Shown here: positions 8,459 through 60,531 of the stretch, piece after piece
Layout of the letters: every line of letters begins with the position of its first letter
Numbering within the stretch: the stretch's first letter is position 1
Source of the DNA: Candidatus Saccharimonadia bacterium
GTDB taxonomy: Bacteria > Patescibacteriota > Saccharimonadia > CAILAD01 > BJGX01
Assembly (NCBI GenBank): GCA_039738635.1
Contig: JBCLLN010000001.1
Span: 42,806-106,805 of the forward strand
DNA length: 64,000 bases
Direction of reading: 5' to 3'
Made by a program: the position numbers and the translations under genes
The notes under the pieces: model-generated
Told to the model about the DNA's origin: nothing
Database searches by the model: none
Seen by the model: the letters and a program-made list of their open reading frames with translations, nothing else

Positions 8459-9104
8459 AATATCTGACGTGTTAATTTATCGGATCCCACTTACTAGAAC
8501 TGATAAATATACACCCAGAAATACAAATAATAATCTGCCATGTACTAACGCAAAAAATAAGTTTAGTGCAGGTCTTTACTTCTGCTCACTAATTTTGAAA
8601 AAAGATTTTAGAGTTTTTGCCAAAAAGTATATTTTCAATACAAATGGAAAGCCCATTTTGGAATCAGGAGAATGTGAATTTAGTATCTCCTATACGGATG
8701 ATCATGTATATATAGCAATAGTTAGAAGCGATATGATTGGTCTTGACGCTGAGAAGATTAAAGTTATTAATCTCAATGTTTCTAAGGAATTTATGTCAGA
8801 AAGAGAATTAGTAAAATTAAAGAGAACAACAAATAAATACAAATACTTCTATAAAATATGGACACTTAAGGAATCGTATATAAAACTCATTGGTTCAGGA
8901 ATTGATAATTCAATAACCGACATAGAATTTATCGAGGATAAAAACGGAAAAATCTCCATAGCTAAAGAAATTACCCCAAAAATATATTTTAGTAATTTTG
9001 TATCAAAAGATTGTATAATATCAGTTGCTTCGTTTAATTTAGTTAATTTCGAGATTATAGAATTTGATAACGCGAAAGAATTTTTAAAAAAATATGGCTA
9101 TTAA
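8451..9104 (+). CDS. Sfp-type 4'-phosphopantetheinyl transferase
   Basis: PPTase motifs GLDAEKI (GxD..E) and WTLKESYIKLIG (W/F-x-x-KE-x-x-x-K). The ORF begins at 8442; the ATG at 8451 (MNKISDVL) is chosen as start. Overlaps the aminotransferase stop. Confidence 0.7.
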   Translation: MNKISDVLIYRIPLTRTDKYTPRNTNNNLPCTNAKNKFSAGLYFCSLILKKDFRVFAKKYIFNTNGKPILESGECEFSISYTDDHVYIAIVRSDMIGLDAEKIKVINLNVSKEFMSERELVKLKRTTNKYKYFYKIWTLKESYIKLIGSGIDNSITDIEFIEDKNGKISIAKEITPKIYFSNFVSKDCIISVASFNLVNFEIIEFDNAKEFLKKYGY

Positions 9105-32688: not shown

Positions 32689-34308
32689 CTATTGTATCTG
32701 ATAAAGCCTGGCTTCGCTATATCCCCCGCGATATGACTGCTTAAGCACCCAACTAGGCGGCACAGAATCATAATAATCATGCTGGCCAGTCTTGCCAATC
32801 AGCCAGACTCTGCCTGGTGGCAAGCTAGTAAATGAGTCCGTATAGACACCCTTATCGTAGAGGAGCCCAGACTCACCATAGCCATTAGGCCTACCATTAT
32901 GGGTATAGAGTAGTATTCTAGAGCCAGTTTGATTATAAAAGCTTGAATCAAAATATGTATAGAGCTCAGCTGAGATTATGCTATCACCTGGCAAATACTG
33001 CTGATTTAGGGCATCCATTACATTACCCATCTGATGATTACCCTGGGAGTAAACATTTCTAATCCCCACGAGCTGTAAGGATATAACTACCAGAGCCAGC
33101 GCTACTGCAACTGCGCGATGTTTTTTCACAAGCGAGCTAAAATAAATTGCTAGCAACATACAAACGCTAAGCGCACTAAAAACAAAATAGCGCTGATGGA
33201 AGACCGGCTTGACTAGCGAAATTACAATGACAGATAAAATTGGTAAAAGCGTAAAAATAGCTAGAAGCCGAACAAAGCGCTCCTTAGACTTGTCTAAAAT
33301 GGAAATATATAGGATAGCTGCCAAAACCCCCAGCGGCAGCACCCAATAAGAGATGGGGCCAATCAAGTGCGCGTCAGTAAAAGTAAAAAACTGCCAAATG
33401 GTGTCATTAAAAGTAGCGATGGATGTCTTAGATAGCCAGCCTAGCCCTTGACCGCTAGTAATTTGATTAATCATATTCGGTATCCACGGCAAAAAGATAA
33501 TCACTGCTAAAACATTAGCTCCCCACCAGCGCCAATCTGAGAGTAGTTTTATTTTCTTATTGCCTTTTACAATATAGAGGCTAGCCACATATAGCCAAAA
33601 GCTAGCTACCACTAGAACCGTAAAGTAATGGGTATAAAGACCAGCCGATATTCCAAGAATATACAATGCGTACCCTAGCCAACGATTATTACGACGGACT
33701 ATCATAATAAGTCCTAGCATAGCTACCAACATAAATACTCCCAGCACACCATACATTCTAGCTTCCTGGCTATAGCGAATCAAGAAAGGGTTAAGCGCTA
33801 GGATAACTCCAGCTAGTGCGGCAATATTATGTCGCTTAGTAATTTTATCAACTATTAAGTAGCCTAGCCCCACTACCGCAACTCCACATACAGCGCTTAA
33901 AGATCGCAGCGCAAGGGCTGAATTACCAAATATCACCGACCAGCCATGCAGTAGCTCGTAGTAGAGCGGTGGATGCACATCCCTAGCTGAACCAAGCCAA
34001 ATACCTAGCCAGTCCCTACTTGCCAACATAGCACTATATCCTTCATCGTGCCAAATGCTCGACTTTGTAATCCCAACCCACCGAGCGGTAACTGCCAAGA
34101 CTATAATTACACCAAACACCAAAACCCAATGCTCATTAAGATATTTACTAAACCTACTAGATGAATTAGATTTAATTTTTGTATTGGCCACGGAGTATCT
34201 GCCAGCGAATTTTAAGCAAATCACCAAAGGTCTGCACTGATGCCTTAATGGGTGAGCTACCGCTAATTTTACTGCCTTCCTTGACATCTTTCCAGTCAGG
34301 AACATCAA
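32689..34308 (-). CDS. GT39/GT83 (PMT/ArnT-like) polytopic membrane glycosyltransferase
   Basis: More than 10 TM helices, ArnT/PMT-like topology. True start is probably downstream of 34308, since this ORF overlaps the upstream GT2 gene by 137 nt. Confidence 0.55.
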   Translation of the reverse strand: MMFLTGKMSRKAVKLAVAHPLRHQCRPLVICLKFAGRYSVANTKIKSNSSSRFSKYLNEHWVLVFGVIIVLAVTARWVGITKSSIWHDEGYSAMLASRDWLGIWLGSARDVHPPLYYELLHGWSVIFGNSALALRSLSAVCGVAVVGLGYLIVDKITKRHNIAALAGVILALNPFLIRYSQEARMYGVLGVFMLVAMLGLIMIVRRNNRWLGYALYILGISAGLYTHYFTVLVVASFWLYVASLYIVKGNKKIKLLSDWRWWGANVLAVIIFLPWIPNMINQITSGQGLGWLSKTSIATFNDTIWQFFTFTDAHLIGPISYWVLPLGVLAAILYISILDKSKERFVRLLAIFTLLPILSVIVISLVKPVFHQRYFVFSALSVCMLLAIYFSSLVKKHRAVAVALALVVISLQLVGIRNVYSQGNHQMGNVMDALNQQYLPGDSIISAELYTYFDSSFYNQTGSRILLYTHNGRPNGYGESGLLYDKGVYTDSFTSLPPGRVWLIGKTGQHDYYDSVPPSWVLKQSYRGGYSEARLYQIQ

Positions 34309-34912
34309 TAAGCCCGATACTCATGCCCTTCTTTCGCGCAATAGCTAGTATTTCCATATCAAATCCCCAGCTCTCGATGGTCTGGAGCGGGAATATAATA
34401 TCTGCCGACTCCTTAGTGAAAGCCTTAAACCCACATTGGGTGTCTTTAATACCAGGCAAGAGCAATGTCTGCACTAGCATATTGCCAGTACTAGAAATGA
34501 TTTTACGAAGACCCTTGTGGCTGGCCTGGAGATTCCTAACACATATTGCTACCTGCTTGCCAGAGCCCAGCAGACTAATGGCGTCATCAATATACTTCAG
34601 TGGAGTAGCGAGATCGGCATCCATAAACAACACATACTTGCCCTTAGCTTTGAGCATTCCTTTTTTAACTTGTAGGCCCTTTATAAACTTGTCTTTTGGT
34701 TTGGGTCCTACATTAATTACCTCAAGGTCATTAAATAACGAGCTGCGACTTTTTACTTCATCGACCGTACCATCGGGACTTCCGGCATCAATTATTAGTA
34801 CTTGGGCATTTATCTTAGAATGATCAAGGTATTTTGATAGTTTATCCAAAGTGGCGCCAATCCTGCCAGCCTCATTGTAGGTGGGTATGACAATACTTAG
34901 AAAAGTACTCAT
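34172..34912 (-). CDS. GT2 polyprenyl-phosphate sugar synthase (DPM1/ArnC-like)
   Basis: LSIVIPTYNE, IIDAGSPDGT, LFMDADLATP (DXD). Confidence 0.8.
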   Translation of the reverse strand: MSTFLSIVIPTYNEAGRIGATLDKLSKYLDHSKINAQVLIIDAGSPDGTVDEVKSRSSLFNDLEVINVGPKPKDKFIKGLQVKKGMLKAKGKYVLFMDADLATPLKYIDDAISLLGSGKQVAICVRNLQASHKGLRKIISSTGNMLVQTLLLPGIKDTQCGFKAFTKESADIIFPLQTIESWGFDMEILAIARKKGMSIGLIDVPDWKDVKEGSKISGSSPIKASVQTFGDLLKIRWQILRGQYKN

Positions 34913-36471
34913 TGGCTAACCTCCACTGCGCTAAATAATAATTTGCCATTAAAGTCCGAGCGGATATCTATAACTTTAGCCTTTGGGAATTTGGCCTTGG
35001 TTAGCGTTATTAGCTTGTCGTGCTCATCGCCGGAGGAAATAATAATTAGCTTAGAGCCCCCAGATATTGGTAGCTCGGCTAGTTCTTGACTGCTTAGAAG
35101 CTGGTACTTAAGCTTCTTGTGGGTTAGGTATTGGATTGGATTGGCTTCATAGCCCCCCATAACGATATAATTAGCGGTGTTATTTTGTTGGCTCGTTATT
35201 AGGTATTTTGCGATCGTCACAGAGCCTTCATTGTAGGCCTCGTAGGTCTTAGGATCTTGGGCCCAGGCTACAAAGTACTGGCGATAGGCCAGCACTAGCG
35301 ATAACCCTAACAGTACGCATACAATTACTAACCCAAAGGTCCTGGCAAGCTTATTGATGGGGAAGGTCCTATACCAGATGAATAATAAATAATTAACTCC
35401 TACACCAGCTAAGATATAGACCGGCACAGCTGTGCCAATAGAGCGAAGGGCGTGGGGGAGTCCTTCGGCTGTCAATAGTGCTGGTAAAAGCATTGAACCA
35501 AACACAGCCAGCAATAATGCATAGCGAGGTTTATTAAAGTTAGTTAGGCATATTATAAGCCCCAGCAAGAACATAATACCCACAAATAAATTAAGTAGTG
35601 GCTGTCCTGCTAGATTATGGCGATTGTTTGCATCCCCCACATAGTGATATTGCAAAAGTGTCTTGGCAGTTCCGCTTAGGAGTGTTGGGATGGGCTGGCC
35701 ATTGTTGAGATCCTTATTAAGAAAGCTAGTCCCCCCAGTCCTTGCTGTAGAGCCGCCTGGATCCTTAAGTGTTGTAACAATCAGTGGCGTCATAACCAGC
35801 CCAAATACCACCAGGCTCAACACTAACTTCTTCCAGTGCTCCCCGAGCCACTTTCTGCGAAAAATTAGCATATAGATTGCACCCCCAAATATTGCCGTGA
35901 TAATCATTGCAAAGGCAGTGTAAGTATAAAAACCAAGCCCCAATGAGATGCCCGCTAAAACATAAAAAATAGCTTTATTGGTCTTATAGGCTTTGGCACC
36001 AAAGAGCATTACCAGCCCAATAAATAGTGGTACCAAGCTAGCCCTAAAGCCATCACGCTGAATAGTCACCACCCAAGGGCTAATGGCAAAAAGGAAGGCC
36101 GTAATAAGTGCTGTGCGGCGGCTAAACCACTCTTTAGTGGCAAAAAATATTACAATTACACTGAGTACTCCAAAGAGAGCTGGCGCGATTCTTAGGGCAA
36201 GAATAGTATTGCCCATAGCATACACGAAAATGGCTTGCAGATAAAAGAACAGTGCTTCCCTAGGCCCATTGGTGTCATATATTATTCTCCAGTCGCGGTT
36301 TTCTAAAATTCTAAAGATGTCTAGACCATTGGCTGCCTCGTCTGGATGAAGGCCTGGTGGTAGGCTATTGAGTTGATAGAATCTAAAAAACACTGCCAAT
36401 AATACAATTGCTAACAATAATATCCCTGACCAATATTTCTTAATAAAGTTTTGGATCTTATTTTTTTTCAT
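34909..36471 (-). CDS. GT39/GT83 (PMT/ArnT-like) membrane glycosyltransferase
   Basis: Periplasmic-loop motif PPGLHPDEAANG typical of PMT/ArnT family; about 12 TM. Confidence 0.6.
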   Translation of the reverse strand: MKKNKIQNFIKKYWSGILLLAIVLLAVFFRFYQLNSLPPGLHPDEAANGLDIFRILENRDWRIIYDTNGPREALFFYLQAIFVYAMGNTILALRIAPALFGVLSVIVIFFATKEWFSRRTALITAFLFAISPWVVTIQRDGFRASLVPLFIGLVMLFGAKAYKTNKAIFYVLAGISLGLGFYTYTAFAMIITAIFGGAIYMLIFRRKWLGEHWKKLVLSLVVFGLVMTPLIVTTLKDPGGSTARTGGTSFLNKDLNNGQPIPTLLSGTAKTLLQYHYVGDANNRHNLAGQPLLNLFVGIMFLLGLIICLTNFNKPRYALLLAVFGSMLLPALLTAEGLPHALRSIGTAVPVYILAGVGVNYLLFIWYRTFPINKLARTFGLVIVCVLLGLSLVLAYRQYFVAWAQDPKTYEAYNEGSVTIAKYLITSQQNNTANYIVMGGYEANPIQYLTHKKLKYQLLSSQELAELPISGGSKLIIISSGDEHDKLITLTKAKFPKAKVIDIRSDFNGKLLFSAVEVSQ

Positions 36472-39870: not shown

Positions 39871-40413
39871 TTATACAGTAGAGATTAGAGCTTCAATAGC
39901 TGCCCAGGTGGCCTCGGAGTTGGCAGGGACTACAATGGTAACTTCATCGCCTGATTGAGCTTTAAAGTAGGTAACGCTAGCGTACAAGACTCGATATTGT
40001 CTATCGGCTACAACTGCTACATACTGGCCGTTTTCAAGCGACATCTTAGCAATTATTTTCTTTCGCTCCACAGGACCAATTTGCTTGTATATAAAGCTTC
40101 CATCTTGGGCGATAGTGAGCTTTAGGGTATCGCCTTCTACTAATTTGGATTTAGAGGCATAATTAGCGGGTACTGGATAAGCCTTAGAGTCAGGGCCAAT
40201 CATATTCTGACCATCAAACTGGCCTTCGATAATTTTACCTACCGAATCTTGGGAACCCGGCTGAACAATATTTTGTTTTTTAGGCTTGGGAAGATCGCTG
40301 GAGCTAATACCAAGTTTTTTAAGCTCACCTTCTACCTGCTTAATGGTATCCTGAGCCAATTGCATTTGTACTGCTAAATTTTGCAATACTTGTTGTTTAT
40401 CTTTATCCTTCAT
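39871..40413 (-). CDS. Hypothetical protein (180 aa)
   Basis: Clean ORF; coiled-coil N-terminus; no motif recognised. Confidence 0.3.
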   Translation of the reverse strand: MKDKDKQQVLQNLAVQMQLAQDTIKQVEGELKKLGISSSDLPKPKKQNIVQPGSQDSVGKIIEGQFDGQNMIGPDSKAYPVPANYASKSKLVEGDTLKLTIAQDGSFIYKQIGPVERKKIIAKMSLENGQYVAVVADRQYRVLYASVTYFKAQSGDEVTIVVPANSEATWAAIEALISTV

Positions 40414-40610: not shown

Positions 40611-40658
40611 ACTACAACTATAAAAAAGACCCCGAAGGGTCTTTTTTATAGTTGTAGC
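40611..40658 (-). terminator. Bidirectional intrinsic terminator within a 22-bp perfect palindrome, downstream of rplL
   Basis: ACTACAACTATAAAAAAGACCC-cgaa-GGGTCTTTTTTATAGTTGTAG. Confidence 0.7.
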
Positions 40659-40739: not shown

Positions 40740-41219
40740 TTACTGTAATTCTACAGTAGCGCCGGCTGCTTCAAGCTTTTTCTTGGCTTCTTCGGCTTCT
40801 ACGGCAGGGACATCTTCTTTGACCATTTTAGGGGCGCTGTCTACTACGGCCTTGCTTTCAGCTAAGCCAAGTCCAGATACTTCACGGACAGCCTTGATGG
40901 CATCAATTTTCTTCTCACCGGCAGCAATTAACATCACATTATACGAGCTCTTAGTTTCGGGGGCATCATCTTCGTCGCCTGTGGCCGGGCCAGTTTCGAC
41001 CACGGCTGCTGGAGCGCTCGCACTAACGCCAAAATGACCTTCTAAGACCTTAACTAATTCAGCTAGGTCAAGAACGCTTAACTCTGCGATTTGGTCAACT
41101 AGAGCCTTAAACTTTTTTGGTATAATTGTCTTTTCTTGCTTAGAATCCTCTGGCGCAGCAGAAGCTTCTTTCACGACCTCTTCTTTTGGTTGATCTTTCT
41201 TTGTAGTTTCCTCGGACAT
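40740..41219 (-). CDS. rplL: 50S ribosomal protein L7/L12 with about 45-aa Lys/Glu-rich N-terminal extension
   Basis: C-terminal domain ...KAVREVSGLGLAESKAVVD...AGATVELQ. Start taken at MSEETTKK (41219), directly abutting the rplJ stop. Confidence 0.8.
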   Translation of the reverse strand: MSEETTKKDQPKEEVVKEASAAPEDSKQEKTIIPKKFKALVDQIAELSVLDLAELVKVLEGHFGVSASAPAAVVETGPATGDEDDAPETKSSYNVMLIAAGEKKIDAIKAVREVSGLGLAESKAVVDSAPKMVKEDVPAVEAEEAKKKLEAAGATVELQ

Positions 41220-41220
41220 T

Positions 41221-41751
41221 TTACGCTTTTCCTTTCTTTTCCTGAATGGCACCTAGGGCATACAGGAATTGGGTTATATTACCGTTTAATACTCTTACAA
41301 AACCACTAAGCGGGGCGGCAATTGTTCCTACAACTTGAGCGATTAGAACATCACGGCTGGGAAGCTTAGCTAGCTCCAAGACGACCTCACGGCTAAGAGT
41401 CTCGCCAGACTCATTGATCGCACCTAGGATATTAAGCTTTTGATTATCCTTGGCAAAATCTGCAATTATCTTGCAGGTTTGGGCTTCGTCATTACCAAAG
41501 GCGATGGCCATTGGGCCAGAGAATACCGATGTATCGGCATCCTTGAGATTGGTGTTAGCGATAGCAACTTTTATTAAGGTGTTTTTACTCACCTTATAGC
41601 TTATATCTGCCTCTCGCAAATTATTGCGCAATTGACTTATAGCTGAGACATTTAATCCTCGGTAGTCAGTCATAACGGCAATCTTACTAGCAGAAAAGGC
41701 CTCAGCTAGGGCAGCTACATCAGCTTCTTTTTGCTCACGCGTCTTTGCCAT
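41221..41751 (-). CDS. rplJ: 50S ribosomal protein L10
   Basis: MAKTREQKEADVAALAEAFSASKIAVMTDYRGLNVS... typical L10. Confidence 0.85.
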   Translation of the reverse strand: MAKTREQKEADVAALAEAFSASKIAVMTDYRGLNVSAISQLRNNLREADISYKVSKNTLIKVAIANTNLKDADTSVFSGPMAIAFGNDEAQTCKIIADFAKDNQKLNILGAINESGETLSREVVLELAKLPSRDVLIAQVVGTIAAPLSGFVRVLNGNITQFLYALGAIQEKKGKA

Positions 41752-41964
41752 AGGCTCTCTCCAATACTTTTTAGTTAATGTGCTTGATTACCAAACAAAA
41801 AAATCTTTGGACTAAGCCAAAGAATCTAAAGTTTGAAAATCTATTTAAAAGATTTGTAACCTCTTGCTAGCAAATTTAAGTCTTTTGAACTGCTACAGTC
41901 TTTGGTAATCAAGAATAATTCTAACAGATATGCATAAATATATCAAGCTATTGCTAGGTAGCCT
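41752..41964 (-). promoter_or_regulatory. Candidate rplJ (L10) leader with long-range stem
   Basis: 13-bp perfect inverted repeat CTTGATTACCAAA (about 41789-41801) / TTTGGTAATCAAG (about 41894-41906) in the untranslated region upstream of rplJ. Confidence 0.3.
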
Positions 41965-43215
41965 CTATTCGTACCACCAAGCCAGGCTTGTTGCTAGCTT
42001 ACTGGAATAGTCTTGGAGTGCGCTAGAATCTATCTTGCCAAGGATAGCTTCGGCTAATACTTGGCCCAAACCGTTGGCCTGCGCAATACTTAATCCACGG
42101 CTAGTGAGGGCTGGCATACCTAGCCTTAGGCCACCTGGCTTCCATGGCGACTTAACATCGTTGGGTATGGCATTGCGGTTGGTGATGACCCCACAGGACT
42201 CTAGCCTCTGTTGAAGCTCCAAGCTATCAACATTCTCTGGCAACTTACAAAGGGTAAGGTGGTTTTGTGACTTAGCAGTAAGCTCTACTCCCCCACCCAC
42301 CAAGCCATCTTCTAGCGCGCGAGTATTAGCCAGAACGCTTGCAATATAATTTTTAAAGGGTAGCTTATCTGGGTATTTGTCCTGATTGAGAGCCTCAAGT
42401 AAGCACTGCCCTACGGCGGCTATTTGATTCAGATGCGGACCCCCGCTTGTTCCTGGGAAGACAGTCTTATTGATAGCAGAGATATGGTCATTCTTAGCGA
42501 ACAATAATGCTGATCTGGGACCTCTAAGAGTTTTGTGGGTGGTGGTGGTCACAAAGTCCGCTCCGCTATCACCGCTAACAAATGGACTGCTGTGCTCCCC
42601 TACCGCTACCAAGCCTGCGATGTGCGCGATATCAGCTAGCACCAAGCAACCGTGCCGATGAGCAATTTGGCAGTATTGCTCAAATTCATACTTTCTGGGG
42701 TATGAAGAAAATCCCAGTACCACTAGCTTAGGTTTGTATTCTAGAATTTTTTTATTAAAATCATCAACATCTAGCTCGTAGCCATCTGGGCCACGGCTAA
42801 GATGATAGGATTGGTGCTTAAAAAATTTTAGGTAACTGCTGGTGGAATGTAGGTGGCTAAGATGCCCTCCACTAGCCAAATCAAGGCTTAGAACCGTATC
42901 GCCTAGATTTAGGACCGTCAAATAAACCATTGCATTGGCTGGGCTACCCGATAAAACCTGGACATTCACTCTGTATTCACCAGTTGGGTCAAAGAGTTCT
43001 AACGCTCTAGATTGCACAAACTCCTCCAACTCATCTGATAAAACATTGCCCGCATAGTAGCGCTGGCCAGGATAACCTTCGGCATATTTATCATTCCAGA
43101 TAGATCCCAGTAGGCTTAGTACTTTAGGGCTAGGGTAATTCTCTGAGGCAATCAGATTAAGGCTATTTTTCTGACGCTGTGACTCGGCTTGAGTTAATTC
43201 AAATATTTTGTTCAT
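41965..43215 (-). CDS. glyA: Serine hydroxymethyltransferase
   Basis: VTTTTHKTLRGPRSAL (PLP-Lys), SHMT N-terminal NLIASENY. Confidence 0.9.
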   Translation of the reverse strand: MNKIFELTQAESQRQKNSLNLIASENYPSPKVLSLLGSIWNDKYAEGYPGQRYYAGNVLSDELEEFVQSRALELFDPTGEYRVNVQVLSGSPANAMVYLTVLNLGDTVLSLDLASGGHLSHLHSTSSYLKFFKHQSYHLSRGPDGYELDVDDFNKKILEYKPKLVVLGFSSYPRKYEFEQYCQIAHRHGCLVLADIAHIAGLVAVGEHSSPFVSGDSGADFVTTTTHKTLRGPRSALLFAKNDHISAINKTVFPGTSGGPHLNQIAAVGQCLLEALNQDKYPDKLPFKNYIASVLANTRALEDGLVGGGVELTAKSQNHLTLCKLPENVDSLELQQRLESCGVITNRNAIPNDVKSPWKPGGLRLGMPALTSRGLSIAQANGLGQVLAEAILGKIDSSALQDYSSKLATSLAWWYE

Positions 43216-43317
43216 AAGTTTATATTATACATCAAAATAATTATAGCCCTCAGATATTCCGAAGGCTATAAATAAATTGCTTTAAGTAGAATCAATCTTT
43301 TAAAAGATAACTAATGA

Positions 43318-45105
43318 TTACTTATCTTTAGATCTTTTTATGCTTAAGCGCTGTTCGGACGCGGCCCGACTAAGGCCATACGCGTTATGATCAACATAAC
43401 TCATGGCATTGCCAATAACCGGATCTACGGCACAAACTAACTTGTGCATTTGCTGGCCCACTTTGCGATATGCGGGGTGGCCATCTCGGCCGGTGCGCAG
43501 TTCCAGCATAAACATCAACGCCCTGGCGTTAATATTCATTATTACTCGCATCCGATATGCCAAGCAAGTGACATACTGGGCTGATAGCGGGTAGTCTGGC
43601 GAAAGTAACATGTATAGCATGCGGCTAAGATCCATAGCTTGCTTATAAAGCACAGTTTGACCCATGTCCTCAATGACTGGAGACATTGTCCACCCTAGCG
43701 ATGGTCCAACTTCCCCCCACTCCATAGTCAGTAGACGGTGGCGTTTCCAGTCACGCATAATGCCAAAGTCAATTAACATATCAAAAGAGTAAGTGGCATG
43801 TTCAAAAGCTCTTCCAGGCTTCCACCGACGGTTGCCGGTGGCGCTATCAAAGCTTCCACGGTCGCCACAATAGGCAGTTACCAGCCGCTCTTGAGCTTGT
43901 GGGCCAATACTATTGGCTAGCTCACGGCTCTCAAAAAAGGTTTGATTTGTCGAGCTTTGCTCAAAAATGATAGCCGAAGCTACCTTGAGTAGGTTGTCTG
44001 GATCGCTCCAGCCTAGCGCTACCTCATTATCACTTAGCTCGGCTCTGCTAGTGCCAGTGGCTTTAGTGTTTTGCTTTTCATAAGCACCTACCAGCTCTTT
44101 GACGCTAGCCCGAGTATCTCTTTTATATTTAATCCATTCAAGACCCTTTTTAGGGTCATCAACTTGATTAAAAAATGCCGGAGATGCATCAGGATGGCGA
44201 AGCTCGGTAAGCGCCAATAGGCCGATAGCTCTGGCCTCTGGAAGACCGGAGCTCATGAGCCGTCGAAGCATATTAGCGGCTGCTTGAGCACTGCCATAAA
44301 AGCCAACATTACTAACAATGCCAGCAGGCAGAATAGGCCGAACTGCATCCAGAGCCTGGGCTTTAATTGAAGCTTGGTAGGCCCTGTTATCTCCATCAAA
44401 TTCACTTCTGGGATTTTGGGTCTGGAAGTACTCTTTGGCATGCTCGAGCATCTGTTGGTAGATACCAAACAACTGATCCATTGCTTGGCAATAGTGCTTA
44501 CCATGACGCCCGTCCAAAATACTAGAAGGTAGGTAGTAGCGGAAACGGCCATCGGCCATAGCTAACGAGTAATCAATATAGCGAGTGGACTGCTCAAGAT
44601 AAGCAGCCAGCCTTCCCCTCTCAATTTCATTGATTACAATATTACTTACCTGCTCAAAGACAATATGTACTCCACCAATCTGGCTCACCGAATCGTCCCC
44701 GTACTCATCAAAAATCCGCCGATAAAGATTCTCGGCATGGTCCGTTGAAAAGATAGGGTCTTGAGATTCCCTAGCCAAGGTTTTGGCTATATAGTAAAAA
44801 CAGCTTGATGGATTGTCTTCCCAAGCTTTTTCAGCTTCGGTTTGCGAGATAAATTTAGCCATGCATGATATGGCTATCTCCTTTCTTGCTACAAACTCAT
44901 CTAAGAAAAGTCGCCTGGTACTCTTAGGGCTCCGTGAATATCGAGCAAAAAGCGCTCCTATCAGTATCTGGGGCAAGTTAATGGGGCAAAACACTGGCCC
45001 ATCGATATTGGTGAAGTACTGACGAAGGATATATGCTTCATTCTCGGTAAAGCTCTCCACCACATACACACTGCCGGAGTTGGGGATGGCCATGAATTGC
45101 TCCAT
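43318..45105 (-). CDS. thyX: Tandem (pseudo-dimeric) ThyX/Thy1-like FAD-dependent thymidylate synthase domain protein, 595 aa
   Basis: C-terminal half carries RDWKRHR (RHR motif) and NINARALMFMLELRTGRDGH (ThyX ...NAR.L..F..LR...H). The N-terminal half has a degenerate second copy (FARYSRS; ILPAGIVSNVGFYGSAQAAANMLRRL). Confidence 0.45.
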   Translation of the reverse strand: MEQFMAIPNSGSVYVVESFTENEAYILRQYFTNIDGPVFCPINLPQILIGALFARYSRSPKSTRRLFLDEFVARKEIAISCMAKFISQTEAEKAWEDNPSSCFYYIAKTLARESQDPIFSTDHAENLYRRIFDEYGDDSVSQIGGVHIVFEQVSNIVINEIERGRLAAYLEQSTRYIDYSLAMADGRFRYYLPSSILDGRHGKHYCQAMDQLFGIYQQMLEHAKEYFQTQNPRSEFDGDNRAYQASIKAQALDAVRPILPAGIVSNVGFYGSAQAAANMLRRLMSSGLPEARAIGLLALTELRHPDASPAFFNQVDDPKKGLEWIKYKRDTRASVKELVGAYEKQNTKATGTSRAELSDNEVALGWSDPDNLLKVASAIIFEQSSTNQTFFESRELANSIGPQAQERLVTAYCGDRGSFDSATGNRRWKPGRAFEHATYSFDMLIDFGIMRDWKRHRLLTMEWGEVGPSLGWTMSPVIEDMGQTVLYKQAMDLSRMLYMLLSPDYPLSAQYVTCLAYRMRVIMNINARALMFMLELRTGRDGHPAYRKVGQQMHKLVCAVDPVIGNAMSYVDHNAYGLSRAASEQRLSIKRSKDK

Positions 45106-45221
45106 ATCTACTAGGTAATATTGAATTATGAAGGTTCTTTAAAGCCAAAAATATTGTAGTCTTATTATGGATTAAATAAAACCATTAGAACTACTAAGAT
45201 AATGCTTTCGTTGCAATACTA

Positions 45222-46238
45222 CTATTGCTTGGCAGTCTTAACGGCTTCACTGCGATCTAGCTTAATACTAGGGCTCATTGAGGAACTAAGGAACATATTC
45301 CTTATAAAGACACCCTTAACGCCACTGGGTTTAGCAGACGATAAAGACTTAATGGCAGACTTGGCATTAGTAAATAGATCCTCGGACTTAAAGCTCAACT
45401 TTCCGATAGATATATGAACCACGCCATTGGCATCATTTTTGATCTCTATTTTGCCTTGCTTGAATTCTTCGACTGCGTGGGCTGGATCAGTGGTAACTGT
45501 GCCATTTTTGGGTGATGGCATAAGCCCCTTTGGGCCAAGTACCTTGGCTAGCTTACCTAGTTCGCCCATTTTTTCGGGGGTAGCAATTAATACATCAAAG
45601 TTGAATTTTTCCTGAGTGATTTGACTGATGATAGCTTCGGCGTCATACATATCAGCCCCTGAAGCTTTAGCGGCCTCTGCCTCTGGCTCGGCTGCTACTA
45701 CGGCCACCTTAAGAACCTTTCCGGTCCCCGCTGGCAATATTGAGTTGGTGCGGACTATCTGGTCGGCCTGGCGAGGATCGATATTAAGAGTAATGTGCAA
45801 TTCTGCGGTGGCATCAAACTTGACAGAAGATATTTGAGGCAATAGCTCGATGGCTTCCTTAAGTGGATATAGTTTGTCCTTTGAGATAAGTTCTCTGGCT
45901 ACTTTTTGATTCTTGGTATACCTTATAACTCGAGGTTTTTGAATTGGCTTGGGGGCTTCAATGGCCTTTTTAGCTTCTACCTTTTTGGCTTGTCTTGCTT
46001 CTTCCTTGAGCACCTCAGCCTTGACCTTGGCGCTACGCTTACCAGCCTTGGCTACGGCTGTATCCTCAAGGGCTTCGTCTGCTTTGGGTTGAACTATTTC
46101 AGCTTCAGGTTGAGCTATTGCTGGTTTAGATGATACTTTTTTTGTTAGCTTTTTTGGTTTGATATCATTTGACGATTGTTGCTTATCTTTTGGCATTACT
46201 ACTCTTTCCGTGGTGCAAACCCGTTCGACTACGCTCAC
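45222..46238 (-). CDS. rplA: 50S ribosomal protein L1 with about 100-aa Lys/Ala/Glu-rich N-terminal extension
   Basis: C-terminal 230 aa match L1 (FDATAELHITLNIDPRQADQIVRTNSILPAGTGK...); the N-terminal extension KKVSSKPAIAQPEAE...AKKVEAKKAIEAPKP is histone-H1-like. Confidence 0.8.
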   Translation of the reverse strand: MSVVERVCTTERVVMPKDKQQSSNDIKPKKLTKKVSSKPAIAQPEAEIVQPKADEALEDTAVAKAGKRSAKVKAEVLKEEARQAKKVEAKKAIEAPKPIQKPRVIRYTKNQKVARELISKDKLYPLKEAIELLPQISSVKFDATAELHITLNIDPRQADQIVRTNSILPAGTGKVLKVAVVAAEPEAEAAKASGADMYDAEAIISQITQEKFNFDVLIATPEKMGELGKLAKVLGPKGLMPSPKNGTVTTDPAHAVEEFKQGKIEIKNDANGVVHISIGKLSFKSEDLFTNAKSAIKSLSSAKPSGVKGVFIRNMFLSSSMSPSIKLDRSEAVKTAKQ

Positions 46239-46259: not shown

Positions 46260-46691
46260 TTATTCTACTTCTACTCCCATGGAACGAGCTGTTCCGGCAA
46301 TTATCTTTTTGGCGGCCTCAACATCGTTGGTATTAAGATCGGGAATTTTCTTTTCTGCGATCTCGGTCAGCTGAGTCTGTGTTAATTTACCAACCTTATC
46401 TTTATTAGGAACTCCTGAGGCTTTTTTAAGCTTTAGGGCTTCTTTGATGAGTGTTTTGGTGGGAGTTCCCTTAATAACAAAACTCATTGATTTATCAGCA
46501 TAAATAGTTACTAAAACTGGTGTTGGCTGCCCTTTACGGTCTTGTGTCTGCTCGTTAAATGGATTAATAAAGTCCATCATATTAACCCCGTGTTGTCCAA
46601 GTGAGGACCCAACAGGTGGAGCTGGTGTGGCTTGGCCTCCCATAATTATCATTTTGACTCTAGCGTGTGGTTTTTTTGCTTCTTTTGCCAT
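46260..46691 (-). CDS. rplK: 50S ribosomal protein L11
   Basis: MAKEAKKPHARVKMIIMGGQATPAPPVGSSLGQHGVNMMDF... canonical L11. Confidence 0.9.
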   Translation of the reverse strand: MAKEAKKPHARVKMIIMGGQATPAPPVGSSLGQHGVNMMDFINPFNEQTQDRKGQPTPVLVTIYADKSMSFVIKGTPTKTLIKEALKLKKASGVPNKDKVGKLTQTQLTEIAEKKIPDLNTNDVEAAKKIIAGTARSMGVEVE

Positions 46692-46704: not shown

Positions 46705-47238
46705 CTAAATCCTCTTTACCTGAAGTGAATCAAGCTCCACCGGAGTTTCTCTTCCAAACATACTAACTAAGACCTTGATCTTGCCTTTTTGTTCGTCTAT
46801 TTCATTGACCTGCCCATCAAAACCCTTAAATGGTCCGTCGATAATATTAACAACTTCATCAATCTTGAAATCAATACTGTATTTTGGCTCGTCAATGCCC
46901 ATCCGGCGTTGAATTGATTTAACTTCATCATCACCCAGTGGCGATGGTGCGGTGCTGGTACCAACAAAACCCGTCACATTTGGTGTGTTGCGTACCATGA
47001 ACCATGAATCCTCGGTGATGACCATATGGATCATTATATATCCGGGGAATATCTTGCGCTCTACGGTGCGACGGTGCCCATTTTTAATTTCAATTTGCTT
47101 TTCCTTGGGTACAATAATATCAAAAATCTTGTCTTTCATGTCTAGGGATTCAATTCGTTGACGCAAAGCATCGGCTACTTGATCTTCATATCCAGAGTAG
47201 GTGTGTATAACAAACCAATTTTTTTGTTCTGTAGGCAT
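46705..47238 (-). CDS. nusG: Transcription termination/antitermination factor NusG
   Basis: NGN domain WFVIHTYSGYE, C-terminal KOW GPFKGFDGQVNEID. Confidence 0.85.
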   Translation of the reverse strand: MPTEQKNWFVIHTYSGYEDQVADALRQRIESLDMKDKIFDIIVPKEKQIEIKNGHRRTVERKIFPGYIMIHMVITEDSWFMVRNTPNVTGFVGTSTAPSPLGDDEVKSIQRRMGIDEPKYSIDFKIDEVVNIIDGPFKGFDGQVNEIDEQKGKIKVLVSMFGRETPVELDSLQVKRI

Positions 47239-47429
47239 TATGGAATCCTTAAAATTAATGTTTTGAGGACGGTTCTCCAGATAGTATCAAGGCCTGCTAA
47301 AATTACGCCCAGAATAAGTGAGGCAATAATTATCAAAACCGTAAGCTGCAAGGCCTGTTTTTTGGTGGGCCAAACTACTTTTTGCATTTCTGCAACTGAG
47401 TTCTTGATGTAGGTGGTAAATCCGCGCAT
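47238..47429 (-). CDS. secE: Preprotein translocase subunit SecE
   Basis: 63 aa, EMQKVVWPTKKQ + single TM; position upstream of nusG. Confidence 0.75.
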   Translation of the reverse strand: MRGFTTYIKNSVAEMQKVVWPTKKQALQLTVLIIIASLILGVILAGLDTIWRTVLKTLILRIP

Positions 47430-47508
47430 AAATTGTATTTAATCTAAAAAAGCCTTTTTTCGGCCTTTTGTTTATTCTACCTAATAAATATGCCCGTTGT
47501 CAATGATT

Positions 47509-48735: not shown

Positions 48736-48931
48736 AATTTTGCTTATGTTTAATTATAACTCTAATCACGCAAGCGAGCAAAACTTTTTTTAAGCCTTAC
48801 GGCCCTGCCCATCGTGGTGTATAATATGAACTCAATTATTAATAATATAATAATCACTTTTCTTGCTTAAAGAATTTAGGTTGCTTGGTGGTGGTGCTCG
48901 TACTCCCCGCTCTATTGAAAAAACTTATGTC

Positions 48932-50956
48932 ATGAACAAGACCTCAACAAAAAAGAATCCCAGGCTAAGCATTAAGGAAATGCTAGCAAGCTCAAGGCCA
49001 CTTAGCTGGGTCAATACAGCAGCTCCGTTTTTTGTGGGATATTTACTAGCCCATGGCTCTATAAATATTGCCTCTATGATAGGTGTTATTTACTTTAGCT
49101 TTTTTTATAATTTTTTATTATGCGGGGTAGGTGATATTTATGATGATAAATCAGATATTAAAAATCCTCGCAAAAACTCCATTGAGGAAGCTGTCGCGAA
49201 TAAGCACAAGCATAAGCTTATGTTTTATTTTATTGCAGGCAGTAATCTGCCAATTGTACTATACCTGCTTGTTACGGGGACCCTTGCTAGTGGTGTCCTG
49301 CTAATAATAGTGATATTTTTAGCTTTGAGCTATTGGGTCAAACCTTTTAGATTTAAGGAAGTTCCAATTCTAGATTCTATTAACTCTAGCCTGCATTTTG
49401 TGATGCCATTTATATTTGGGTTGGTATATGGTAACGCGCAGTCCCTGCCCTGGCCGGCAATTATTGCCTTTTTTATGTGGGGCATAGCCTCACATTCCCT
49501 TGGCTCCATCGCAGACATTAAGCCAGACCGGGCTCGCATAATTAGCTCTATCGCCACTAAGCTAGGGGCTAAATTCACCAATACTTATAGCCTTGTATTT
49601 TACTGCCTGAGTTGTCTGGTAGTTATTATATTCTATTTTCCGTGGGGTTTAGTTGCTGGAATTATACTATCTCCCTACGCGGTTAATGTGGTATTTTTTA
49701 GAAAGTATAAATCCGATGCTAAAAGCGATGAGTACAGGCGGGCCTGGAAGAATTTTATTTGGCTTAATGTGATATGCGGAGCATGGCTATCGCTACTGCT
49801 ATTATTTATATTTGACCCATTTGGTTTAGGTGCAACGAGAGTAGGCTGGGTGGGTGGATTTTTAATTGTCTTTGCTACTGTGCAATTTGCCCTGACCTAC
49901 TATAACTACAAAAAAATCGCCAGACCCAAGACCAAGCGACTTGGAGAGTTGCCCAATATCAATATATTATTACACTCCATCGGGAATCAAGACGACATCG
50001 CCTCTACCCTGCTAGCTTTAATCGGTCAGAATTACCCACACTTTGATATATATTATGCCAATCTAGATCACAATCCACAGTCCTATAAAATAGCCGAGGG
50101 CTACCAAGATAGTAGGCTTCATATTATAAGAGTAGATAAAACTCCAAGTGGGTGGACTCAGCAAGCCTGGGCTACCCATACACTACTAGCTAAAACAAAC
50201 TCCGAGCTGGTGGTCTTACTTGGGGCAGATACTATTCTTTTACCTAATACTCTCTCGGTTATTGCTAGCCTCTTTGACTCCCAAGGACTTGACTTAGTTT
50301 CGTTACTTCCGGCCGACCAAAATAAATCATTTTGGCAACAGTTAGTGATGAGCCAAGAACAGTATTTGCTGATGGGGCTATGCCCACCCGCATATCTTAC
50401 TCAATACTTTCCTTTTCTTGCGACTGCCTACAGTAGTTTGATTGCATTTAAAAAGTCTGCCATCAAAAAAATTGGAGGCTTCGAGGTTGTCCGCTTGAGC
50501 CCCCTAGAAGATCTTGATATTGCCAATAAGGCTAGGGAGAAAGGATTAAACACTCAGTTTTATGCAGCCAGCGAGCTGGCGGTAAGCCAAAATAAGTCTA
50601 GTTTTATAGAGCTTTATAAATACAATAAGCAACGGCTCTACCCCAGCCTGCACTTTAATATGCCGTTGAGCTTGGCGCTGATTTCTGGTGGGCTATTGGT
50701 GATTACATTCCCGCCGATCCTGCTAGTGACCTTACTATTACTGGGCGCCTATGAGGGTACAATATTGCTAGCCATTGCTTGCGTCCTGATGTTATGGAAC
50801 AGGCTATATGTGATGATTCGCTCCAGGCAGAGTATTGTTGGCGGTTTACTCTACCCTATTGGCACAATGATAATGCTACTTGCGGTAATTAGCTCTATGG
50901 CTGGCTACGAAATTAAAAAGCCTCACTGGGAAAGTCGGCTAGATATACCATCATAG
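48932..50956 (+). CDS. Fusion protein: UbiA-family prenyltransferase (N-terminal) + GT2-like glycosyltransferase (C-terminal)
   Basis: UbiA Asp-rich motifs GVGDIYDDKSD and SIADIKPDRARI within a 7-9 TM N-terminal half. C-terminal about 330 aa GT-A-like (LLGADTIL DXD-like, IGGFE) followed by extra C-terminal TMs. The ORF opens at 48863; the ATG at 48932 is taken as start. Confidence 0.5.
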   Translation: MNKTSTKKNPRLSIKEMLASSRPLSWVNTAAPFFVGYLLAHGSINIASMIGVIYFSFFYNFLLCGVGDIYDDKSDIKNPRKNSIEEAVANKHKHKLMFYFIAGSNLPIVLYLLVTGTLASGVLLIIVIFLALSYWVKPFRFKEVPILDSINSSLHFVMPFIFGLVYGNAQSLPWPAIIAFFMWGIASHSLGSIADIKPDRARIISSIATKLGAKFTNTYSLVFYCLSCLVVIIFYFPWGLVAGIILSPYAVNVVFFRKYKSDAKSDEYRRAWKNFIWLNVICGAWLSLLLLFIFDPFGLGATRVGWVGGFLIVFATVQFALTYYNYKKIARPKTKRLGELPNINILLHSIGNQDDIASTLLALIGQNYPHFDIYYANLDHNPQSYKIAEGYQDSRLHIIRVDKTPSGWTQQAWATHTLLAKTNSELVVLLGADTILLPNTLSVIASLFDSQGLDLVSLLPADQNKSFWQQLVMSQEQYLLMGLCPPAYLTQYFPFLATAYSSLIAFKKSAIKKIGGFEVVRLSPLEDLDIANKAREKGLNTQFYAASELAVSQNKSSFIELYKYNKQRLYPSLHFNMPLSLALISGGLLVITFPPILLVTLLLLGAYEGTILLAIACVLMLWNRLYVMIRSRQSIVGGLLYPIGTMIMLLAVISSMAGYEIKKPHWESRLDIPS

Positions 50957-59096: not shown

Positions 59097-59603
59097 ATGG
59101 ATAACATCAAAATGACATGGGTGACAAGTAACCAAATCAAGCAAATTGATGCAGGCTTACCAATATTACAGGTTTATATATGGATTATAACAACCGACAA
59201 GCATATTGTGATTGTGTCAAAAGATGGCAAACATTGGCAGTTCCCTGGTGGTAAACCAGAACCAAATGAGGAGATTACCGACACAGCTATTCGTGAAACG
59301 ACCGAAGAAACCAGCCTAGACTTATCACCATATAAAAACAAGTTAAACTTTTTTGGGTATTATGTTGTAGAGGATAATAACAAACAAAATGATAATCAAT
59401 TTATTCAAGTTCGTTTATACTGCAATATAAATAAACTAGCCAGCGATATGAATGTTCACGCAGGCAAAGAAGACTTAAACCAGGCAGATAGTGAGAAGAT
59501 CAAGTTTGTTCGGGTTGTGACTATTAATGAAGCCACCCAATTGATTCCGTGGCTGAAGAGCTCGGGCGAGTACACTACCCTACTCAAGATGGGAACTATT
59601 TAA
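59097..59603 (+). CDS. NUDIX hydrolase
   Basis: Nudix box GGKPEPNEEITDTAIRETTEETS. Confidence 0.75.
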   Translation: MDNIKMTWVTSNQIKQIDAGLPILQVYIWIITTDKHIVIVSKDGKHWQFPGGKPEPNEEITDTAIRETTEETSLDLSPYKNKLNFFGYYVVEDNNKQNDNQFIQVRLYCNINKLASDMNVHAGKEDLNQADSEKIKFVRVVTINEATQLIPWLKSSGEYTTLLKMGTI

Positions 59604-59823: not shown

Positions 59824-60531
59824 TTGGAATTGGGAGTTTATAGCAACACACAAATAGAAAATGCCATAAAGGAAGGGCATATTATATTTCACCCTTACAT
59901 GCCCAGACATATAGGTGGTAGCAGTATTGATGTAACTTTGGGCCATTGGTATTACCGTACAGAAAAACCGAGTGAAGGCGGCTTCTATAACCCCATGGAT
60001 GAGACGGCCGTAAATAAATACTTTGATGGCCCACATCATGCCGAAAATCACGGAACCTGGGCCAAAAAACACGGACGACATTTATTTAAAAACATCCCAG
60101 CCAACCATCCGATAATTGTTCTGCGTCCAGGCCAGCGCATACTAACCCATACTCACGAATTTATCGGCATAAAAGCTCCTGGTACCAGTGCTTTGCAAGC
60201 GCGCAGTACCTGGGGTAAAAATGGCGTGTCAGTATGTTTAGATGCCGGCTGGGGAGATCCGGGTTATATAAACCGCTGGACTATGGAAATTTATAATATG
60301 AACCAGCACGAAAGCGTGGTTATACCAGTCGGTGAGCGTGTGGCGCAAATGGTGTTTTATGATACTGGCCCGGTAAGAGGTGAATATAAAAAGCTAAGTG
60401 GCAAATACCAATCTGGGAAAAGCGATGATTTAAATTACATCATTAAAAACTGGCGACCGGAGCAAATGCTACCCAAAGCTTATAAAGACAAGCGCAATCT
60501 ACCAAAAACCATAAAAGGGCTTGAAGGGTGA
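59824..60531 (+). CDS. dcd: dCTP deaminase/dUTPase-superfamily protein (Dcd-like, longer than canonical)
   Basis: GSSIDVTLG and GWGDPGYINRWTMEIYNMNQHESVVIPVGERVAQMVF resemble Dcd motifs. Confidence 0.55.
   Translation: MELGVYSNTQIENAIKEGHIIFHPYMPRHIGGSSIDVTLGHWYYRTEKPSEGGFYNPMDETAVNKYFDGPHHAENHGTWAKKHGRHLFKNIPANHPIIVLRPGQRILTHTHEFIGIKAPGTSALQARSTWGKNGVSVCLDAGWGDPGYINRWTMEIYNMNQHESVVIPVGERVAQMVFYDTGPVRGEYKKLSGKYQSGKSDDLNYIIKNWRPEQMLPKAYKDKRNLPKTIKGLEG

Follow-up and report, generated by a model that had tools for sequence, protein, structure and literature searches.

Why does the ribosomal-protein block of a Saccharibacterial genome carry, between rplA and rplJ, a gene for serine hydroxymethyltransferase (SHMT) and another for a ThyX-like protein of 595 amino acids, and can a protein of that length be a working enzyme? 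We studied this question in a stretch of 64,000 nucleotides from Candidatus Saccharimonadia bacterium (contig JBCLLN010000001.1, positions 42,806 to 106,805), referred to as the window, with all positions counted from its first letter. Judged by its sequence and by a structural model, the longer of the two genes, here named thyX, quite probably encodes a working flavin-dependent thymidylate synthase of an internally duplicated, two-domain ThyX subfamily.

ThyX converts deoxyuridine monophosphate (dUMP) to thymidine monophosphate (dTMP), with methylenetetrahydrofolate (CH2-THF) as carbon donor and reduced flavin adenine dinucleotide (FAD) as reductant, and releases tetrahydrofolate (THF). SHMT, the product of glyA, regenerates CH2-THF and is the standard partner of ThyX (PMC6514825); a first-pass annotation, made from the sequence of the window, had assigned it this role, and the literature supports the assignment.

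The list of open reading frames (ORFs) and the Pfam matches give the minus-strand order secE-nusG-rplK-rplA-thyX-glyA-(L10 leader)-rplJ-rplL. Both glyA and the 595-residue ORF lie between rplA and rplJ at the coordinates first assigned to them, and the whole series is encoded on the minus strand:

47238-47429, minus strand: secE (strong Pfam match)
46705-47238, minus strand: nusG (strong Pfam match)
46260-46691, minus strand: rplK (strong Pfam match)
45222-46238, minus strand: rplA (strong Pfam match)
43318-45105, minus strand: thyX, two-domain (internally duplicated), ORF of 595 aa (Pfam Thy1)
41965-43215, minus strand: glyA, serine hydroxymethyltransferase, 416 aa (Pfam PF00464 and NCBIfam NF000586)
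41221-41751, minus strand: rplJ (Pfam Ribosomal_L10)
40740-41252, minus strand: rplL (Pfam Ribosomal_L12 and L12_N)

The glyA product scores 349.6 bits against PF00464 and 373.6 bits against NF000586 (cutoff 335) and carries the pyridoxal-phosphate lysine motif THKTLRGPR at aa 226, which places it among the SHMTs.

Two Thy1 Domains in One Chain

The first-pass annotation had described the long protein as a fused pair of Thy1 domains and had named a count of Pfam Thy1 domains as the check. That count, set beforehand, yielded two domains rather than one or zero. PF02511 matches the 595-aa protein in two stretches (103.1 bits for the whole), and each half, scanned apart, exceeds the gathering score of 24.8 bits, with 55.3 bits for the N half (aa 1-340) and 52.1 bits for the C half (aa 341-595). 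Comparisons by hhalign, AlphaFold2 and Foldseek agree with a fused pair. The two domains are placed as follows:

44071-45078, minus strand: N-terminal Thy1 domain, aa ~10-345, putative substrate-loop donor (aa 103-302 match positions 13-185 of the Pfam profile)
43321-44034, minus strand: C-terminal Thy1 domain, aa ~358-595, putative flavin-binding domain (positions 49-191 of the Pfam profile)

The N half contains an insertion at aa ~72-120 that varies by lineage. Because a GGAG sequence resembling a Shine-Dalgarno site lies 7-10 nt upstream of the second ATG, at 45093 (M5), and because the NCBI protein P0001, 100% identical to ThyX, is modelled as 591 aa, translation probably starts at ATG 45093 and gives a protein of 591 residues.

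AlphaFold2, supplied with the family alignment, returned a single-chain model with a mean predicted local distance difference test score (pLDDT) of 85.5 and a predicted template modelling score (pTM) of 0.84. The modelled secondary structure of aa ~146-302, strand-helix-strand followed by strand-helix-helix, recurs at aa ~438-560. When the model was compared with the PDB by Foldseek, all 50 matches listed were chains of ThyX or PolB with a probability of 1.00; the top matches have E values of about 3e-6 to 2e-5 and TM-scores, normalised by target, of 0.58-0.72, in an output that does not distinguish which half was aligned. The copy of the PDB searched holds no structure of the widespread two-domain ThyX subfamily.

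The Catalytic Residues Are Divided between the Halves

Each half was mapped by hhalign onto ThyX of Thermotoga maritima, with a reference sequence identical to PDB 1kq4/1o26; for the C half the alignment has a probability of 72% and an E value of 3.4e-5. Conservation was counted in a census of 120 aligned two-domain relatives with 30-100% identity. The residues of interest are:

44578-44595, minus strand: E171-Q-S173-T-R175-Y176, N half only, corresponding to T. maritima E86-L-S88-G-R90-Y91 (dUMP/carbinolamine loop); the C-half counterpart by hhalign is W463-G-E465-V-G467-P468, where the loop is lost
44611-44619, minus strand: R163-G164-R165, N half, degenerate remnant of the RHR motif (T. maritima R78-H79-R80)
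43735-43743, minus strand: R455-H456-R457, RHR motif, C half only (T. maritima R78-H79-R80)
44338-44340, minus strand: R256, N half, corresponding to T. maritima R147; the C-half counterpart is Q510, the arginine being lost
43477-43530, minus strand: N526-A-R528 ... R537 ... H543, C half, corresponding to T. maritima N163/R165, R174 and H178

For the last group, hhalign pairs T. maritima N163-A-R165 with S272-A-Q274 of the N half and R174 with R282, the latter in a weak alignment and at a position that is R in 54/120 and K in 35/120 of the census; no N-half residue was mapped to H178. The motifs RDWKRHR and NINARALMFMLELR..H, quoted in the first-pass annotation, were located in the C half. Equivalents of the RHR motif and of the serine had also been expected, and they were found in different halves, RHR in the C half and Ser in the N half.

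The census shows how strictly this distribution is kept. In the N half, R256 is present in all 120 sequences, R165, S173 and R175 in 118 each, Y176 in 116 and E171 in 115. The C half retains R455 in 119, R457 and R537 in 117 each, H456 and R528 in 115 each, H543 in 113 and N526 in 109 of the 120. Positions whose role is taken by the other half vary: of the former RHR motif in the N half R165 alone is conserved, next to position 163 (D 40, R 35, W 33) and position 164 (G 50, S 18, A 14, P 12), and the C-half loop positions read W/R, L/P/D/A, T/G/S/D and P/T/C/V. At the C-half position of R147, 81/120 sequences have Q. With respect to the RHRxxS signature, the C half reads R455-H456-R457-L-L-T460, that is, with Thr in place of Ser, and was counted as a match; the Ser88/Arg90/Tyr91 substrate loop is found in the N half and is absent from the C half.

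On this mapping, each half is incomplete and the two halves are complementary. Its conservation across 120 relatives implies that the partition arose together with the subfamily and has been maintained by selection.

Another reading would be that the C half is a complete canonical ThyX and the N half a decayed copy with a structural or regulatory role only. The equivalents of RHR, NAR, R174 and H178 all lie in the C half, which also has the better hhalign probability and is the only half to yield PDB matches with a family profile. Yet throughout the family neither the E-x-S-x-R-Y loop nor an R147 equivalent is present in the C half, and Ser88 and Tyr91 of ThyX, whose equivalents sit in the N half, are strictly conserved and critical for activity (PMC11940539). 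The N half moreover keeps these loop residues and R256 in 115-120 of 120 relatives, which is unexpected for decay, and scores slightly above the C half on Pfam Thy1. We therefore consider a decayed N half unlikely. Of the first-pass description, a bona fide Thy1 core in the C half and a degenerate copy in the N half, the former stands as regards RHR, NAR, R174 and H178 but has to be amended for the missing substrate loop and R147 equivalent; the latter is contradicted, as the N half alone keeps E-x-S-x-R-Y and R256, at a similar Pfam score.

A Proposed Model of the Assembly

The complementary halves can be placed in the published anatomy of the active site. A canonical ThyX site is built from three subunits (PMC6514825, section 3.1). 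Subunit A provides the RHR motif, whose contacts to the FAD phosphate and ribityl moieties and to dUMP are described in the same source, together with the equivalent of T. maritima R174; subunit B provides a Ser and the equivalent of T. maritima R165, both contacting FAD; and subunit C provides the Ser/Arg/Tyr loop, which binds most of dUMP (PMC6514825).

We used the site triples of 222 symmetry, (A,B,C), (B,A,D), (C,D,A) and (D,C,B), and went through the three possible distributions of two C halves and two N halves over the four positions. If the C halves occupy A and B, two sites are fully competent; if they occupy A and D, two sites lack the R165-type arginine, and if they occupy A and C, no site is competent. 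Any placement thus yields at most two working sites. The A/B placement is favoured because N526 and R528 are strongly conserved in the C half.

From the published active-site anatomy and the residue census we infer a homodimer that acts as a pseudo-222 tetramer with two working sites. The two C halves would pair in a C-C' interface holding two FADs, with one substrate loop contributed by each N half, such that two active sites are competent and two dead, instead of four being competent. In evolutionary terms, after an ancient internal duplication one copy would have kept the substrate-loop role only and the other the flavin-binding roles only, and the homodimer would then represent a pseudo-heterotetramer with two composite active sites.

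If this model is true, the protein is a natural asymmetric ThyX and useful for assigning the catalytic role of each subunit. ThyX is an antibacterial drug target whose mechanism relies on three-subunit active sites, and a fused form with complementary losses would show which of the subunit roles can be separated. The model predicts half as many flavin sites per mass.

Evidence for Thymidylate Synthesis

The rplA-rplJ gap was compared among relatives, whose loci are numbered L001, L002, etc. The following arrangements were found, with x denoting other genes and percentages denoting ThyX identity to the window protein:

Window (100%): rplA-thyX-glyA-rplJ
L003, L004 (59-60%): rplA-thyX-glyA-rplJ
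L001, L002 (61-63%): rplA-dcd-tmk-thyX-glyA-(Crp-like gene in L001)-rplJ
L006 (62%): ...thyX-glyA-x-x-rplJ
L005 (59%): rplA-x-x-dcd-tmk-thyX-rplJ
L010 (47%): rplA-x-dcd-tmk-thyX-rplJ
L012 (48%): rplA-dcd-tmk-thyX-rplJ

Directly downstream of thyX, glyA is found in the window, L001-L004 and L006. The neighbourhood dcd-tmk-thyX occurs in L001, L002, L005, L010 and L012; the tmk products of L001 and L005 score 102 and 106 bits against TIGR00041 (cutoff 83), and in L005, L010 and L012 tmk either overlaps thyX by 4-11 nt or ends 4 nt before it. Within the ThyX family, Pfam matches reveal a thymidylate kinase N-terminal to two Thy1 domains in P0162, P0169, P0173 and P0256 (697-781 aa) and a dUTPase in the same place in P0200 (703 aa). 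The fusions, the dcd-tmk neighbours and glyA favour genuine dTMP synthesis over a different methylation as the function of the protein. As a separate observation, P0180, P0165, P0155, P0141 and P0262 contain 100-270 additional residues without a Pfam match.

Two further genes of the window had been assigned to the same pathway:

59824-60531, plus strand: dCTP-deaminase-family gene, 235 aa (PF22769 DCD, 107 bits against 27)
59097-59603: NUDIX gene (48 bits)

The link of the dcd-like gene to thyX is borne out, as its homologues adjoin tmk-thyX in the same slot of relatives. The window dcd is 40-59% identical to the in-slot dcd of L001, L002, L005, L010, L011 and L012, and by this comparison dcd has moved out of the thyX slot in this genome; against the equivalog TIGR02274 it reaches 75.6 bits, below the cutoff of 92.8. 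The NUDIX gene, in contrast, was tied to the pathway solely by its adjacency to dcd in the window, and it received no specific family assignment. Its sole tblastn match in 16 loci is a 33-residue Nudix-box segment of an unrelated NUDIX in the actinobacterial L013 (39% identity, E 7e-4). In L013 and L014 thyX is followed after 1.4-1.5 kb by a small NUDIX gene that resembles the window NUDIX at the Nudix box only.

Taken together, GlyA beside ThyX would recharge THF to CH2-THF from serine, the dCTP-deaminase-family enzyme would supply a deoxyuridine nucleotide (likely dUMP or its triphosphate, dUTP), and in relatives the translationally coupled dTMP kinase would carry dTMP on to thymidine diphosphate (dTDP).

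It has to be considered whether the protein might be a ThyX-fold methylase with another substrate or product, such as a PolB-like C5-methylation of uridine monophosphate (UMP) or a modified-base pathway. Foldseek indeed ranks PolB first (4p5b, E 3e-6), a Streptomyces cacaoi enzyme that methylates UMP and dUMP, and the window protein falls under the thyX equivalog cutoff in a family remote from characterised ThyX. However, the matches to PolB and to T. maritima ThyX are statistically indistinguishable, members of the family are fused to dTMP kinase and dUTPase, and Saccharibacterial thyX adjoins dcd, tmk and glyA. Conserved housekeeping positions of the gene in Saccharibacteria and Actinobacteria, and the retention of all dUMP- and FAD-contacting residues across the two halves together, also speak against a different chemistry, which we hold to be very unlikely.

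For the preferred assignment as a thymidylate synthase, and for its wider pathway context, several observations weigh on the other side. A phmmer search of the PDB with the 595-aa protein returned zero matches, in keeping with a family remote from characterised ThyX, and a profile of 40 family sequences found only a weak match to Helicobacter pylori ThyX (3ah5, E 5e-4), confined to the C half; thus no solved close relative is at hand for structure transfer. Against the thyX equivalog TIGR02170, a model built on single-domain ThyX, the protein reaches 44.8 bits with a cutoff of 87.9. The hhalign mapping of the N half is of low probability (E 0.024), although local motif matches and the Pfam domain match agree with it. 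A tblastn search with the Tmk of relatives found no tmk in the 64-kb window, and dut, folate-cycle genes, thyA and other nucleotide genes were absent from the window ORFs scanned, which leaves the pathway context incomplete. With neither tmk nor dut found and the NUDIX link unsupported, the idea of a complete dUMP-to-dTDP module in the window was abandoned. Finally, the promoter, terminator and leaderless assignments presented below are pattern-based only.

A Conserved Position in the Genome

Relatives at 59-63% ThyX identity belong to Candidatus Saccharibacteria or Patescibacteria. In every Saccharibacterial locus examined, down to 47% ThyX identity, the rplA-rplJ slot holds thyX, and the flanks are collinear throughout, with secE-nusG-rplKA before the slot and rplJL-orf180-dnaX-dnaB after it. 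Because the same slot and collinear flanks persist down to 47-48% identity, the placement predates the divergence of the Saccharibacterial lineages; among those sampled, and as read from their synteny, it is a conserved trait and not a recent insertion. Actinobacterial relatives (~42% identity) carry thyX downstream of tatC-helY and without pathway neighbours. Their neighbourhood, observed in L008/L009, L013 and L014, reads (pafA)-tatA-tatC-helY-...-thyX.

That thyX-glyA is a recent horizontally acquired island which landed by chance in a ribosomal-protein block is extremely improbable and was rejected on synteny, for although the GC content at 42-45 kb (0.445-0.474) lies slightly above that of the flanks (0.41-0.43), the nearest non-Saccharibacterial relatives are actinobacterial (~42% identity) and Actinobacteria host cultivated Saccharibacteria (PMC10633639), all Saccharibacterial loci examined share the slot and the collinear flanks. 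An ancient transfer into the Saccharibacterial ancestor is possible.

Saccharibacteria lack de novo nucleotide synthesis. They would nevertheless keep a 'last-mile' thymidylate module, dcd-tmk-thyX-glyA, anchored in the gap between rplKA and rplJL, and the conserved set would mark the making of thymidylate from imported or reduced pyrimidines as a step that epibionts of the candidate phyla radiation (CPR) cannot outsource. For the two proposals jointly, namely that two-domain ThyX is an obligate division-of-labour enzyme and that it forms part of a Saccharibacterial last-mile module in this gap, we put the chances at about even. Our literature search found no paper joining ThyX with Saccharibacteria, and the papers listed for ThyX with CPR, Patescibacteria or TM7 are silent on ThyX itself.

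Predicted Transcription Signals

How the inserted genes may be transcribed was considered from the following elements:

47474-47503, minus strand: promoter-like site upstream of the secE block, 11/12 matches (promoter scan)
45094-45221, minus strand: rplA-thyX spacer, without a terminator-like hairpin or a convincing promoter (scan)
43241-43271, minus strand: 14-bp terminator-like hairpin with T-rich tail, just downstream of thyX (scan)
43224-43231, minus strand: TGTATAAT, resembling an extended -10 box, 8 nt upstream of the glyA ATG (pattern)
41918-41946, minus strand: promoter-like site for rplJL, TTGATA-17-TAGAAT with TG, 10/12 matches (promoter scan)
41788-41923, minus strand: L10 leader RF00557, attenuator hairpin at 41804-41823 (49.0 bits, gathering score 44)

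Because no terminator-like structure lies between rplA and thyX, read-through from rplKA into thyX is possible in the window, and thyX may be transcribed in this way; RNAfold gives the spacer a minimum free energy of -16 kcal/mol over 128 nt. If so, the supply of dTMP would be tied to the growth rate by read-through from the ribosomal-protein promoter. L002 and L010, however, have strong hairpins after rplA, and coupling to ribosomal-protein transcription is therefore no general feature.

Between thyX and glyA, a GC-rich hairpin followed by a T-run is also present in L001, L002, L003, L004 and L006. The sequence TGnTATAAT occurs 6-10 nt upstream of glyA (23 nt in L003/L004) at all six loci, i.e., the window, L001-L004 and L006, and no Shine-Dalgarno sequence precedes glyA. 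As judged from these patterns, the glyA mRNA may be leaderless or have a very short leader. Since a conserved hairpin and an extended -10 box separate them, thyX and glyA are probably separate transcription units and not one operon.

The L10 leader lies 36 nt upstream of the rplJ ATG, and the promoter-like site for rplJL falls between the glyA stop and this leader. In L001, L002, L005, L006 and L012, too, the leader stands directly before rplJ and after the inserted genes. As rplJ is preceded by a leader and a promoter-like site of its own, the module occupies the natural boundary between rplKA and rplJL and interrupts no operon. The notion of an insertion in the ribosomal-protein block, put forward in the first-pass annotation, thus holds for the position between rplA and rplJ but is better described as the occupation of a gap between an rplKA unit and an rplJL unit. 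A search of the spacers with Rfam at E<=1 for ZTP, THF or other riboswitches gave the L10 leader only.

Just downstream of rplL, at 40616-40652, a perfect 16-bp hairpin, ACTATAAAAAAGACCC-TTCG-GGGTCTTTTTTATAGTT, lies between A-runs and T-runs and looks like a bidirectional intrinsic terminator. A sub-threshold Rfam match of this segment to a microRNA was discarded as spurious.

Further Features of the Window

Two proteins of the ribosomal block carry additional N-terminal residues. In L1 (rplA, 45222-46238; 338 aa), the L1 domain is preceded by an N-terminal extension of ~110-130 residues rich in Lys, Ala and Glu; the Pfam match begins at aa 137, and similar extensions are found in the L1 proteins of L005 (327 aa), L010 (302 aa) and L012 (292 aa). 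The L7/L12 ORF (rplL, 40740-41252) comprises 170 aa, with ~45 additional N-terminal residues. Between rplL and dnaX, positions 39871-40413 (minus strand) encode a 180-aa protein without a Pfam or NCBIfam match (orf180), which is kept at 62-86% identity in every Saccharibacterial locus extending that far.

Outside the block, positions 447-9104, within a low-GC stretch of ~1-12 kb, contain the ORFs 447-7256, 7253-8458 and 8442-9104. Their products are, in this order, a 2269-aa non-ribosomal peptide synthetase (NRPS), an aminotransferase of class III and a 4'-phosphopantetheinyl transferase. The NRPS is composed of AMP-binding domains with an embedded methyltransferase, PP-binding and Condensation domains and another AMP-binding/PP-binding pair, and it ends in an NAD_binding_4 reductase. 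The GC content of the region is 0.30-0.38, compared with ~0.42 elsewhere in the window. Such a cluster would not be expected in the reduced genome of a Saccharibacterium, may be a horizontal acquisition and is potentially more interesting than the thyX-glyA finding. In addition, 48863-50956 (plus strand) encodes a 697-aa fusion of a UbiA prenyltransferase and a family-2 glycosyltransferase, which recurs beside the block in L012, and 32689-36471 (minus strand), downstream of dnaB, encodes two tandem PMT_2-type glycosyl/mannosyltransferases and GtrA.

Comparison with Known Systems

The two-domain architecture is already known and no oddity of this genome. A duplicated ThyX was seen in Chloroflexi 'and a few other species' and called uncharacterised in 2009 (Valas & Bourne 2009, PMC3224940), the sole mention that our literature search found, domain duplication being unmentioned in the ThyX reviews consulted. 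A word-indexed protein search returned at least 8000 matches, of which the best 120 are all 531-609 aa long and align over 94-99% of the query. When 1.84 billion representatives were scanned exhaustively with HMMER, 487 clusters formed at 50% identity had E<=1e-30, and with E<=1e-10 the number rose to 1860. Two Thy1 stretches were present in 10 of 10 family members scanned. NCBI or JGI give the name 'FAD-dependent thymidylate synthase' or 'thymidylate synthase ThyX' to several relatives, mostly from metagenome-assembled genomes of Actinobacteria/Acidimicrobiales with ~40-42% identity. The gene is thus already correctly named in public annotation, and existing knowledge is not overturned. What we add is incremental, namely the explicit complementary partition of catalytic residues with its two-site consequence, and the conserved position that the gene shares with dcd, tmk and glyA in Saccharibacteria.

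The ThyX of Chlamydia trachomatis, of ~529 aa, was reportedly characterised by Griffin et al. in 2005 and is probably of the two-domain type; a literature search for CT632 gave no match. According to PMC6171736, the divergence of chlamydial ThyX was too great for the original phylogeny. Two candidates for a natural split form were rejected. At 3001-4693 of L015, on a 775-kb contig, two overlapping genes of 323 and 248 aa represent a frameshift (assembly error or pseudogene), because the conserved 'RG..W..YL.D.R' continues in the frame of the downstream gene; the 271-aa P0216 lies on a 1-kb contig and is uninformative.

With canonical ThyX, as known from T. maritima (TM0449, 1kq4/1o26), Mycobacterium tuberculosis, H. 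pylori and PBCV-1, the window protein shares the fold and the Pfam family, the same catalytic and ligand residues when its two halves are taken together, and presumably the same chemistry and SHMT partnership (PMC6514825). Canonical enzymes consist of identical subunits of ~220 aa, whereas the window ThyX is a single chain of 68 kDa in which two Thy1 domains differ from each other and neither has the full residue set; it is predicted to form two rather than four competent sites per pseudo-tetramer. Unlike canonical ThyX, it also carries the subfamily motifs ARYSRxxKSxRRLFLDEF (aa 54-71) and NRRxKPGRAFE (aa 425-435). By domain, modelled fold and residues it is a member of the ThyX family of flavin-dependent thymidylate synthases, and it falls short only of the single-domain equivalog cutoff.

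PolB (4p5a/4p5b) is the top Foldseek match, with an E value of 3e-6, a TM-score normalised by target of ~0.7 and 20-21% identity. It is a single-domain protein in an antibiotic (polyoxin) cluster, while the context of the window ThyX and the fusions in its family point to housekeeping dTMP synthesis.

A third comparison is with the domain-duplicated ThyX proteins. The window protein shows full-length, collinear homology to proteins of ~500-610 aa with two Thy1 stretches, which assigns it to the subfamily; this similarity, at 30-63% identity, extends over thousands of proteins of 500-610 aa, and the same residue partition is present throughout the 120 aligned relatives. Within the subfamily, the Saccharibacterial clade is ~40-45 residues longer than other two-domain ThyX proteins, owing to the N-half insertion, and its gene has a home of its own in the rplA-rplJ gap with dcd, tmk and glyA, in contrast to the tatC-helY neighbourhood of Actinobacteria.

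The surrounding block follows the order of the bacterial rplKA/rplJL(-rpoBC) region and has the same L10 leader with an attenuator before rplJ. Where the gap between rplKA and rplJL is normally short, Saccharibacteria have between one and six additional genes in it, namely thyX and, depending on the locus, glyA, dcd, tmk and others, and downstream of rplL the series orf180-dnaX-dnaB of Saccharibacteria stands where rpoBC is found in the usual organisation.

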